From: a virus
Strand: one strand, 5' to 3'
Length of the DNA: 19,325 nucleotides
Virus genome (UHGV): UHGV-0136548
Program-made: the position numbers and the translations under genes
Shown here: piece by piece, positions 6,066 through 8,721 of the stretch
Layout of the letters: the number at the start of each line of letters is the position of its first letter
Position numbering within the stretch: the first letter of the stretch is position 1
Notes under the pieces: generated by a model
Database searches by the model: none
What the model saw: the letters and a program-made list of their open reading frames with translations, nothing else
Told to the model about the DNA's origin: nothing

Positions 6066-6221
6066 GTGTCATCCAAGGCTAATTATGAATCGCTGGCATC
6101 GATCATGCCGCGTAATGAACAGGAAACAGATGCTGTAGTGGACCCTGTAATCGCTGAAATGAATGCTCGCCTGGAGGCTGAATTTGCAGCTGAGAATGAA
6201 CATACCACCCAGGGCGACTAG
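6066..6221 (+). CDS. possible small ORF (51 aa), uncertain
   Basis: GTG start 6 nt downstream of GGGAGA; acidic peptide. Overlaps the start of the next gene in another frame and is below the ORF-track size cutoff. Confidence 0.2.
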   Translation: MSSKANYESLASIMPRNEQETDAVVDPVIAEMNARLEAEFAAENEHTTQGD

Positions 6222-6825
6222 GACTGTTTTTTGTGTCGGTAGCGGTCCGTCACTCACTCGTGAGGACTGTGCTGCTATAGAAAAAACTGGCTGTTCAATC
6301 ATCGCGGTTAACAATTCCTGGCAGATGTTCGATGACATTTATGCCTTATACGCCGGTGATTTGTCATGGTGGAAGCAATACGGATCCACCATACCGGGAG
6401 GGAGATTCCGCAAAGTGACAGCCAACCTGGCGGCGGCGAAATCATTTTCGTTGGAGTACAGGCGATATTGTGGACCGGCGGAAGGGGTAAATAGCGGCGC
6501 GCAGGCTATCAGTCTGGCTGCTGAATCAGGGGCTGAAGTAGTGGTATTAGTCGGCTATGACTGTTCTCTGCAAAACGGCCTTCATTGGCATGGCGCGCAC
6601 CCTCAAGCACTACGGAATCCAACGCAGGTGTCTATTTCAAAATGGCAACAGCAGTTCCTGGATACCCGCAAAAAACACGCAGATTTACATATTTTGAATG
6701 CAAGTAGGAGCAGTGCAATTCAATGTTTCCCAAGAATAAATTTAGAGGCAGTGATCGCGTTATTATCGTCGGCAGTGGCCCAAGCGCCGCAAACTTTGTT
6801 GCGCCGCGCGGAGTGCCGATTATAG
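6196..6825 (+). CDS. Rossmann-like GSGPS-motif protein, paralog A (family unassigned; possibly MptE/DUF115-like)
   Basis: Start chosen at ATG 6196 (MNIPPRATRTVFCVGSGPS) by alignment with paralog B. Shares VGSGPS, IIAVN, NSGxxAIxLA and LVGxD...H.G blocks with the next ORF. Confidence 0.55.
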   Translation: MNIPPRATRTVFCVGSGPSLTREDCAAIEKTGCSIIAVNNSWQMFDDIYALYAGDLSWWKQYGSTIPGGRFRKVTANLAAAKSFSLEYRRYCGPAEGVNSGAQAISLAAESGAEVVVLVGYDCSLQNGLHWHGAHPQALRNPTQVSISKWQQQFLDTRKKHADLHILNASRSSAIQCFPRINLEAVIALLSSAVAQAPQTLLRRAECRL

Positions 6826-7349
6826 CGGTCAATGGGGCCATCGACTGGCTGAACCGCGCTTCTTATTTTTTCACACTTGATCCATCGCCAGACAATATGC
6901 GGCGCGTTGGTCGTGGCCGCCGTCGCCGTGGTGTTTGTTATTGCATGGCACTACCCGATGTTAAAGAACGTGAAGTCAGAGACGGCGTTCTGTGCTTCCG
7001 TCGTGTGGCTGAACGTGGCATGGAGCCAAAAAATACGAATTCTCCCGAGTGGTGGGCGTGGCGCTGGTCCGCACATTTCGGACTTTGCGAAGATGAGAAT
7101 GAAATTGCCAGCGGCAATAGTGCATATGGTGCTCTGAACCTGGCTTTCCATATCGGATTCAAACATGTCGCCCTGGTGGGCGTTGACGCTACACAAGAAC
7201 CACGCGTTCACTCCGGCGGCACGCCAAAAAATCTAAGTCACCTGCCTTTGTTATTCCAGTCTGCGCGTGAACGGATTGACGTTGTTTCATGCGGGAAAAT
7301 GGGAGGTATTCCGCAGATGACTCTTAAAGAATGGCTGAAGAATACATGA
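6723..7349 (+). CDS. Rossmann-like GSGPS-motif protein, paralog B
   Basis: 208 aa. VIIVGSGPS...[10 protein letters not shown]...[26 protein letters not shown]...HSGG, collinear with paralog A. Overlaps paralog A by about 100 nt in another frame and contains an Arg-rich insert (GRGRRRRG). Confidence 0.55.
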
Positions 7350-8023
7350 TGGCACCCACAATTTATCACCGTATCGACGGTACCAAATACAGGAATGTCT
7401 GGGTTGTTGGTGATCTGCATGGTTGCTACACCAGACTGATGTCCGAACTCCATCGTGTGGATTTTGACCCGGCGCAGGATTTACTGATATCGGTCGGCGA
7501 CCTTATCGATCGCGGTACTGAAAATGTCGAATGTCTGGAACTATTGCAGATGCCCTGGTTCAGGGCAGTGATGGGGAACCATGAGCGGCTGATGATTGAT
7601 GCGTTAAGTCCAGATGGCAACGTGAATAACTGGCTAATGAATGGCGGACAATGGTTCTTCATGCTGGACACTGATCAGGAAATATTAGCCTGGGCGCTGG
7701 TGGAGCTGGTAAAGCGTCTGCCCTATATCATTGAGTTGAACACCGGGCAAGAAACTATCGTTATAGCCCATGCCGACTATCCGGATAATGAATACCAATT
7801 CGGTAAGGAGGTGCCGCTTTTCAACGTTGTCTGGGCGCGCGAGCGTATCAGTGATTCGATGGATGATATTGGTGGCGAAATTTCGGGCGCAGATCGTTTT
7901 ATCTTTGGTCACACTCCGGTGAAAAGCCCGAAGACATTCTGGAATCAGCAGTATATCGACACTGGTGCCGTATTTTGCGGAAACCTGACATTGATGAAAG
8001 TGAAAGGTGATGGTGCAGCATGA
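7346..8023 (+). CDS. ppp: Ser/Thr protein phosphatase, lambda-phosphatase family (calcineurin-like metallophosphoesterase)
   Basis: Collinear with my recollection of lambda PPase ([49 protein letters not shown]). Alternative in-frame starts at 7331 and 7349; 7346/7349 fit the lambda N-terminus. Stop overlaps the next start. Confidence 0.85.
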
Positions 8024-8721
8024 AGATTGCTTTAGTTTTTCGCTCTGGTGGTGACTATAACGCTTCCGATGTGCAGTGGCTGGTTAATCAACTGCCAAAA
8101 GGCTATGAAATTATTTGCCTGACAGACCTGAAGCGTTTACATGTACCTGGCGTCAAAGTTGTCCCATTGATCAACCAGTGGCAAAAGTGCCGTGGCTGGT
8201 GGGCGAAAATCGAGTTGTTCCGACCGGATATAACCGATGATCTGTTCTATCTGGATTTGGACACGGTTATTGCCGGTGATATACGCCCAATCCTAGAGCA
8301 TCCACCAACCAGCTTCACCATGCTTAGGGATTTTTACCATCCACAATATCGTGGCAGCGGTGCCCTGTGGATACCAAATAGTGTTAAAGCGCATATCTGG
8401 AGTTCATTCTGGCAAGATCCGGAAGGTTGGATTTCTCGTTGTGTCACTACTGAGTGTTGGGGTGACCAGGGGTTCTTACGAAAGGTTATGGGCGATGATA
8501 CACCAGCATTTCAGGATCTGTATCCAGGATGGTTTGTAAGTTACAAGGCCGATGTTGTGGAACCTGGTTCAAAATATGCGAGCGCGCGTTACTCCAGGGG
8601 GAATGGGGCATTACCAAAAGACTGCCGAATAATCTTTTTCCACGGCAAACCGCGACCTCGCGAAGTGTCAGAGGATTGGCTTCCCCTTATCAGCTCATTT
8701 TTTGAGCGAGAATCAGAATAA
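8020..8721 (+). CDS. DxD-motif protein, possible GT-A-fold nucleotide-sugar transferase-like (tentative)
   Basis: 233 aa. N-terminal [12 protein letters not shown] strand, YLDLDTVI (DxD-like), GDQGFL and [10 protein letters not shown] blocks. ATGA overlap with ppp. Family call is from pattern only. Confidence 0.35.

Follow-up and report, generated by a model that had tools for sequence, protein, structure and literature searches.

The 19,325-nucleotide (nt) stretch of DNA analysed here (UHGV virus genome UHGV-0136548; its full length is called the window) comes from a P1-type phage-plasmid and contains the operon that carries the genes pmgO, pmgP, ppp and pmgQ. We lean towards the reading that this operon would serve as a three-enzyme cassette for building a glycan, expressed in lytic growth and acting most likely on a virion protein, with the phosphatase gene ppp as an independently mobile insert. 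Positions 5100–9100 of the window match Escherichia phage P1 (AF234172) over their full length with 98.8% nt identity, phages P7, SJ46 and RCS47 are equally close, and the P1 annotation maps onto the window at an offset of +2099 with no indels. An earlier note on this DNA had suspected a phage-plasmid, rightly, and had proposed that four adjacent open reading frames (ORFs) form one module. The ORFs themselves have the coordinates, lengths and overlaps that it described, and they are the P1 genes pmgO, pmgP, ppp and pmgQ (hdmA–D in P7). Compared with the P1 proteins, PmgO shows no differences, and PmgP, Ppp and PmgQ differ by 2, 3 and 5 residues, respectively.

All four genes lie on the + strand. 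The gene pmgO (6196..6825, 209 residues, or 220 from the P1-annotated start at 6163) encodes a DUF115/Maf/CstII-like putative glycosyltransferase, and pmgP (6723..7349, 208 residues, phrog_2111) its paralog of the same fold family. They are followed by ppp (7331..8023, 230 residues), which encodes a lambda-PP/PrpA-like Ser/Thr metallophosphatase and is a lineage-specific insertion between pmgP and pmgQ, and by pmgQ itself (8020..8721, 233 residues), the gene of a predicted GT8-type glycosyltransferase (GT-A fold, DxD motif). Out of frame with each other, the coding sequences of pmgO and pmgP have 103 nt in common, and an AGGAG is located 12 nt upstream of the pmgP ATG. The annotated coordinates give pmgP and ppp an overlap of 19 nt, which a ppp start at 7346 would reduce to an ATGA, and the junction of ppp and pmgQ is likewise an ATGA. 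Judged by these junctions, the four genes are translationally coupled.

The AlphaFold2 (AF2) model of PmgQ, with a predicted local distance difference test (pLDDT) score of 94.6, has the GT-A fold and points to a GT8-type glycosyltransferase, which would be metal-dependent (DxD) and retaining. When the model was compared with the PDB by Foldseek, 49 of the best 50 matches were GT8 enzymes (probability 1.00, E down to 7e-9), including Skp1 alpha-galactosyltransferase, glycogenin, GlyE, LgtC, WbbM, LARGE1 and XXYLT1, while rank 50 was taken by 4ayl, a metal-independent histo-blood-group glycosyltransferase. The profile of the PmgQ family matches PDB entry 6mw5 (Skp1 alpha-galactosyltransferase, GT8) with an E value of 2.1e-6, and it also matches GlyE. 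Over 30 homologs the invariant positions are W60-W61-x-K63, D79-L-D81-T82, S113, G148-D149, S174-x-K176 and H208-G-x-P-x-P213, with Q150 nearly invariant. The DxD motif (D79-L-D81) aligns with the DAD of 6mw5, and the GDQG and C-terminal His motifs were equated with the GT8 motifs via the hidden Markov model (HMM) alignment to the same entry and by analogy with glycogenin and LgtC. A search of PmgQ against Pfam gave no family at E up to 1, Glyco_transf_8 included, and because the Pfam GT8 model misses PmgQ, its likeness to GT8 is visible only by family profile or structure. The earlier note had seen a possible glycosyltransferase in this 233-residue protein on account of its DxD-like motif, and both the invariance of the motif and the GT8-type GT-A match of the model bear that guess out.

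The similarity of PmgO to PmgP is marginal in a pairwise BLASTP comparison (E 0.004), being limited to the N-terminal GSGPS/AVN block. Profiles built from 43 and 50 database homologs of PmgO and PmgP, respectively, align in hhalign with 97.7% probability and an E value of 1.5e-12 over 160 columns, with the collinear blocks that the earlier note had picked out by eye in register, beyond what chance would give. By this profile comparison, the two proteins are true, diverged paralogs. Conserved motifs are GSGPSL, AVNNSW, NSG, GYDCS and HWHG in PmgO, and GSGPSA, AVNGA, FTLD, GNSAxGA, VGVD and NLSH in PmgP. In the family alignments, invariant His residues follow the G-x-D strand on its C-terminal side (H130 and H132 in PmgO, H173 in PmgP); they are candidates for a catalytic general base of the Maf/GT42 kind.

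The Pfam family PF01973 (DUF115, 'MptE-like') matches 35 of the 43 members of the PmgO family and 42 of the 50 members of the PmgP family at E up to 0.01; the P1 proteins themselves score 23.1 bits (PmgO) and 21.0 bits (PmgP), below the gathering cut-off of 34.6. Searches of the PDB with single sequences and with family profiles of PmgO and PmgP returned only noise, and no NCBIfam or PADLOC model matches PmgO, PmgP or PmgQ. In the Foldseek comparison of PmgO, a template-modelling (TM) score above 0.5 is reached for Maf and CstII only, with generic Rossmann proteins at about 0.3. The description of these proteins in the earlier note as 'Rossmann-like' nucleotide binders therefore holds as far as a nucleotide-binding alpha/beta fold is concerned; it is too vague for a fold that Foldseek places in the Maf/GT42/MptE group. 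PmgO and PmgP thus appear to belong to a DUF115/Maf/CstII/MptE fold group, and most likely they are glycosyltransferases themselves rather than generic nucleotide binders; they would probably act as partners. With 6,683 cluster representatives in metagenomes (50% identity, E up to 1e-3), PmgO stands for a large family. RefSeq already labels the product of pmgO 'alpha-2,3-sialyltransferase' and that of pmgQ 'glycosyltransferase'. Many other homologs of PmgO and PmgP carry, in NCBI and UniRef, the product name 'norphogenetic protein', which goes back to a misspelling ('norphogenetic') in the pmgM note of the P1 record.

Related loci were collected with PmgQ as the anchor in viral contigs and with PmgP as the anchor in bacterial contigs, one genome per species, and were scored with HMMs of all four proteins. 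The order pmgO-pmgP-ppp-pmgQ is found in P1-like loci and is kept in at least 50 P1-like contigs. In other genomes it is the three genes pmgO, pmgP and pmgQ that recur. They are contiguous in a lambdoid prophage of Citrobacter rodentium, between the lysis genes and terS, and contiguous or nearly so in coliphages EP_H11 and IME392, in the jumbo Xanthomonas phage XacN1, in prophages of Zhongshania, Brevundimonas and Commensalibacter, and in a contig of a metagenome-assembled genome (MAG) of Sinomicrobium (Bacteroidota). A PmgO-type gene is present within the locus in 15 of the 27 distant PmgQ loci, mostly directly upstream of pmgQ. The trio, or the combination of PmgO and PmgQ, thus occurs in lambdoid, HK97-like, podovirus-like and jumbo phages, and all hosts seen so far are Gram-negative. 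In the podovirus-like contigs, ORFs of 199 and 211 residues have marginal HMM support for DUF115 (E 0.004 to 0.06). The trio is a conserved unit; the four-gene set is not, and neither pmgL nor pmgM, two genes located upstream in the same transcription unit, is part of it.

The members of the trio are also joined to each other in single chains. PmgO and PmgP are fused in a protein of 376 residues (P0295, with domain E values of 2.7e-62 and 3.2e-92), and a GT8 domain is fused with DUF115 in two further loci (L075 and L077). In another fusion (P0410), PmgO is attached to a sugar O-methyltransferase of the CalS11/TylF type (E 3e-5 to TDP-rhamnose 3'-O-methyltransferase, TDP standing for thymidine diphosphate), and ORF373 of XacN1 combines a TylF-type methyltransferase with GT8. 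The slot between pmgP and pmgQ varies in its contents, holding a methyltransferase in Zhongshania and Brevundimonas, a protein of 322 residues in EP_H11 and Ppp in P1. The EP_H11 protein has a weak, below-cutoff match to the GT1 family (24.5 vs 26.4 bits). In many contigs, methyltransferases of the FkbM type (PF05050, above threshold) are found beside the cassette.

These companions bear on an alternative that we consider quite unlikely, namely an ATP-dependent pyrophosphokinase activity of PmgO and PmgP, of the MptE/thiamine-pyrophosphokinase type, by which a hydroxyl of a metabolite or a glycan would be activated ahead of a subsequent reaction. The fold group is shared with enzymes of that type, and 'MptE-like' PF01973 is the sole Pfam match of both proteins. 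However, the only fusion partners and neighbours identified are GT8, sugar O-methyltransferases and the weak GT1-family protein, and genes of folate, thiamine or other cofactor pathways are never among them. Since every companion to which a function can be assigned handles sugars, PmgO and PmgP are better understood as putative glycosyltransferases than as cofactor pyrophosphokinases.

Several members of these loci show features of their own. In EP_H11 (OP688485, L086), a homolog of PmgP that is unannotated in GenBank lies at 3426-4064 (HMM E 2.5e-78), where it fills the gap between the coding sequences 2932-3468 (PmgO-like) and 4033-5001 (the weak GT1-family match). One protein of the PmgO family (P0296, 556 residues) has a C-terminal extension that, by eye, resembles Ig-like/BIG-type repeats. 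Two others (P0282/P0399, 484/512 residues) have a C-terminal domain of about 300 residues that, again by eye, opens with a heptosyltransferase-like G-L-G-D motif; the domain of P0282 found no sequence match in the PDB.

Ppp is a phosphatase, as the earlier note had recognized. It scores 59.3 bits against PF00149 (cut-off 21.5), belongs to the NinI-like phrog_246 (E 5e-113) and matches the PrpA/PrpB-like NCBIfam model PRK11439 (E 3e-81), and its translation carries the motifs GDLHG, GDLIDRG and GNHE. HMM scoring found Ppp in 0 of the 27 distant viral loci and in 0 of the 18 non-P1 genomic loci. In the P1-like contig L056, which is syntenic, the order is pmgM-pmgO-pmgP-pmgQ-pmgR without ppp, and there pmgP directly abuts pmgQ. 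Conversely, phage D6 (L084, 3947-4639) shares with the window only ppp (7388-8019, 89.7% nt identity); the D6 gene is surrounded by small nin-like genes, with no pmgO, pmgP or pmgQ nearby. The D6 match indicates a recent, independent exchange of the phosphatase gene alone, as far as the sequences tell. With ppp alone in D6 and the trio without ppp elsewhere, ppp is independently mobile and lies inside the cassette only in the P1 lineage, and the best reading of these comparisons is that it is a passenger rather than an obligate part of the cassette.

The same data make it very improbable that the four genes form, as the earlier note had it, one module that modifies nucleotides or DNA or counters host defence. 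The tight translational coupling in P1-like elements, where the arrangement is so widely kept, speaks for such a module, and so does the finding that the ppp slot holds glycan-tailoring genes in other phages, which makes a tailoring role for Ppp conceivable. The earlier note had itself proposed to examine whether the four genes co-occur, and in this they fail, given the distribution of ppp just described. A PADLOC search of the module matched none of its genes. According to PMC9024508, 24 of 29 P1 pmg/upf single-gene knockouts are unchanged in plaquing and antirestriction. The main text of that source does not name pmgO, pmgP, ppp and pmgQ, which we infer to be among the viable knockouts because PMC10695390, where the four genes are listed as non-essential and dispensable for plaque formation, cites PMC9024508 for them. 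Glycosylation of DNA, considered separately, was judged unlikely: canonical DNA would lack a hydroxyl group to accept a sugar, the loci examined showed no enzyme that hydroxymethylates bases, and the viable knockouts had normal antirestriction.

The operon is preceded by elements that would keep it off in the prophage and turn it on in lytic growth, including late in infection, as follows from the C1 operators (Op82 and Op83) and the late promoter of the P1 annotation. The late promoter LPpmgL (5066..5084, + strand) is identical in sequence to that of P1 and can drive pmgL through pmgQ late in infection. The C1 operator O26, formerly Op82 (5099..5115, − strand), is also identical to its P1 counterpart and lies over the predicted sigma-70 promoters of pmgL. 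A further C1 operator, Op83 (Oppp; 6006..6022, − strand), is located just 3' of the predicted promoter PpmgN and differs from P1 at 2 of 17 nt, reading on the operator strand TATGTACTAATTAATTT in the window vs CATGCACTAATTAATTT in P1. One of the two changes hits the conserved GC of the operator core, and the other three operators compared are the same as in P1; given the core change, C1 might repress PpmgN less strongly here. Operators Op86a and Op86b and the promoter PpmgR (8723..8788), identical to P1, belong to the start of the next unit, pmgR-pmgS, and thereby mark the 3' boundary of the pmgQ operon. A promoter and terminator scan found no convincing internal promoter or terminator inside the operon, and a search of the window against Rfam gave no matches.

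The surroundings of the cassette in other phages point to the virion. In the Zhongshania prophage the order of genes is portal, protease, major capsid protein, PmgO, PmgP, methyltransferase, PmgQ and head-tail adaptor, with overlapping stops and starts. About ten environmental HK97-like siphovirus contigs have a capsid gene, in some a small protein, then PmgO, in some a methyltransferase, then PmgQ and a connector, and in other contigs the cassette lies between head-closure and tail-completion genes. The order in podovirus-like contigs is capsid, an ORF of 200 residues, methyltransferase, PmgQ, and tail tubular proteins A and B. As for P1 itself, the cassette is flanked by a block of tail genes on the opposite strand and by pmgR, a head-completion gene, and the capsid gene is not adjacent. 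A small Ser/Ala/Pro-rich protein (cluster c12), encoded between the capsid gene and PmgO in some of the siphovirus contigs, was considered as the glycan acceptor and rejected, as it is absent elsewhere, for example in Zhongshania. In one HK97-like contig (L004) a PmgO-like gene (4765-5679) is found two genes 3' of a gene for a collagen-repeat protein (PF01391, with a weak match to a carbohydrate-binding module) and is followed by a protein of 286 residues (phrog_6804) and a methyltransferase.

Several observations weigh against a virion-protein acceptor. The cassette lies away from the capsid gene in P1, EP_H11, XacN1 and the Sinomicrobium MAG contig; in EP_H11 it is found among small unknown genes, and in XacN1 and Sinomicrobium it adjoins ribonucleotide reductase genes. 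Lone PmgQ-like genes occupy the moron locus between the integrase and tail-fibre genes of lambdoid phages (e.g., Chlobot), a position more typical of genes for conversion of the cell surface, that is, of lipopolysaccharide (LPS). A glycan on the P1 virion has not been reported, and two recent papers on P1 by electron cryomicroscopy mention none.

Some of these points would fit an alternative that we regard as unlikely, in which the cassette modifies a glycoconjugate of the host envelope, such as the LPS core, in lytic growth, with PmgQ adding an alpha-hexose and PmgO/PmgP further residues. A possible benefit would be the masking of the receptor, which would keep progeny from being wasted on debris and already infected cells. 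P1 adsorbs to glucose of the LPS core, GT8 includes enzymes of LPS and lipooligosaccharide synthesis, of which LgtC and WbbM are among the structural matches of PmgQ, the hosts are Gram-negative throughout, and the locus of the lone PmgQ-like genes is a classic one for conversion. On the other hand, the P1 annotation has C1 repressing the operon in the lysogen, so that lysogenic conversion is not its function, most of the non-P1 cassettes sit in head/neck gene blocks with overlapping stops and starts, and neither a membrane anchor nor a flippase or Gtr-like partner was found.

For the preferred reading, that of a glycan-building cassette directed at the virion, we infer the enzymatic activities, the donor sugars, the partnership of PmgO and PmgP and the acceptor, and the course of events would be as follows. 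In the prophage, C1 would repress the pmgN-pmgO-pmgP-ppp-pmgQ operon; after induction it would be transcribed, also from the late promoter, and its genes would be translated by coupling. PmgO and PmgP, probably paired, and PmgQ would draw sugars from nucleotide-activated donors of the host, and since these donors are already there, genes of sugar synthesis would not be needed in the cassette. A short glycan would be assembled on its acceptor during lytic growth, the acceptor most likely being one or more virion proteins because of the position of the cassette in head/neck gene blocks of other phages and because of the precedent of mycobacteriophages. By analogy, the folds are compatible with glycosylation of virion proteins, as Maf O-glycosylates flagellin and many of the GT8 matches act on protein-linked glycans. 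The gene ppp would have landed in the slot between pmgP and pmgQ in the P1 lineage. The Pmg proteins that PMC9024508, as far as consulted, gives as virion-associated in the P1 proteome do not include PmgO, PmgP or PmgQ, as expected for enzymes.

We can put forward, tentatively, a more detailed version, in which PmgO, PmgP and PmgQ would constitute a glycosylation system for virion proteins that many phages of Gram-negative hosts share with P1. An O-linked glycan would be primed or extended by a minimal Maf-like heterodimer, for which an unusual donor such as CMP-Kdo (3-deoxy-D-manno-oct-2-ulosonic acid activated by cytidine monophosphate, CMP) may serve, GT8 would add an alpha-hexose, and the slot between pmgP and pmgQ would hold tailoring genes that differ by lineage, such as methyltransferases or, in P1, Ppp.

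The window extends upstream of the cassette into P1 tail genes and downstream into a mosaic variable region. Two genes of the same transcription unit precede the operon; the assignments that the earlier note gave them are upheld by the PHROG matches, and both genes lie outside the conserved unit. The first, pmgL (5173..5418, + strand; P1 annotation), encodes a DksA/TraR-like zinc finger (phrog_54, E 1.6e-12). The second, pmgM (5421..5999, + strand), encodes a VRR-NUC-type nuclease that matches phrog_5702 (Holliday-junction-resolvase) with an E value of 4.8e-27 and reaches 21.2 bits against PF08774, just below the cut-off of 23.8; its synteny is confined to P1-like elements (L056, L050 and L097). 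The short gene pmgN (6066..6221, + strand, 51 residues) overlaps the start of pmgO and is weakly conserved, with a tblastn match in only one of three P1-like relatives (L050). PMC10695390 gives conflicting results for it, essential in a CRISPR interference (CRISPRi) screen and non-essential by deletion, and a polar or off-target effect seems likely to explain the CRISPRi result.

The genes pmgR, pmgS and pap are found 3' of pmgQ. The product of pap (10358-10864), called an acid phosphatase in P1, matches the haloacid dehalogenase (HAD) phosphatase domain of polynucleotide kinase-phosphatase (PF25109, 44.1 bits, above threshold), which suggests that Pap more probably removes 3'-phosphates from nucleic acids than serves as a generic acid phosphatase. 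The region 10800-19325 is mosaic with respect to reference P1, the best phage record covering 77% of it and P1 about 64%, and it includes pieces common to more than 500 lambdoid and Shiga toxin (Stx)-converting phages (EaA, Ea22-like, adenine methyltransferase). The GC content drops to 0.38-0.43 around 14.5-16.5 kb and 17-18 kb of the window.

After 70 years of P1 as a workhorse of Escherichia coli genetics, the label of this operon is still 'putative morphogenetic function'. Its genes have long been recorded as P1 ORFs. In the literature we found no functional study of pmgO, pmgP or pmgQ, of DUF115 in a phage, or of a P1 glycosyltransferase. As far as the literature found goes, the new elements, read from gene comparisons, are the conservation of the trio and its linkage by fusions across very different phages of Gram-negative bacteria, the apparently typical position of the cassette in the structural operon together with sugar methyltransferases, and the probable passenger nature of ppp. 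Should the cassette indeed make a glycan for virions or for the cell surface, glycosylation encoded by phages would be a common trait of those infecting Gram-negative bacteria and not one of mycobacteriophages alone; should virions be its target, no such system would have been described before outside actinobacteriophages. A function would then be available for a large family of unknown phage proteins, with a bearing on the immunogenicity of phages in therapy, on receptor masking and on the sensing of capsids by host defences.

The closest known systems are those of mycobacteriophages, in which glycosylation of virions has been described (Che8, Corndog/cluster O; Freeman et al. 2023, as presented in PMC11600133 and PMC11256854); in cluster O, the products of an O-methyltransferase gene and of the three tandem glycosyltransferase genes that follow it act on capsid and tail tube proteins (PMC11600133). 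The P1-type cassette resembles them in its tandem phage glycosyltransferases, often accompanied by an O-methyltransferase, in the presumed use of host nucleotide sugars and in being dispensable for growth, and relatives of the P1 locus likewise place the cassette in or beside virion structural genes. It differs in combining a DUF115/Maf-like pair with GT8 and in its Gram-negative hosts, and the P1 locus itself lacks the methyltransferase and has the inserted phosphatase instead.

The core fold of PmgO is that of the Maf flagellin glycosyltransferases and of CstI-CstII (GT42), whereas PmgO and PmgP are single-domain proteins of about 200 residues, compared with about 630 in Maf, and score below the Pfam threshold of PF01973. 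To our knowledge, CMP-nonulosonic acids, the usual donors of Maf and CstII, are not made by E. coli K-12, and the donor of PmgO/PmgP must therefore differ; the only CMP-activated ulosonic acid donor that we know of in this strain is CMP-Kdo. With the GT8 enzymes (glycogenin, Skp1 alpha-galactosyltransferase, GlyE, LgtC, and LPS core enzymes of the WaaJ/WaaO type), PmgQ has in common the GT-A fold, DxD, GDQG, a loop of the (S/N)-G-V-M type and the C-terminal H-x-x-G-x-x-(K/R)-P motif. Unlike them, it is missed by the Pfam GT8 model, is shorter than most at 233 residues, and forms a phage-restricted family of its own, phrog_1962. Ppp, in turn, corresponds over its full length to lambda protein phosphatase (lambda-PP, NinI) and to PrpA/PrpB, with the GDxHG, GDxxDRG and GNHE motifs and, per the P1 annotation, 64% identity to lambda-PP, but it is located inside a putative glycosyltransferase operon and not in a nin region, and it is non-essential in P1.

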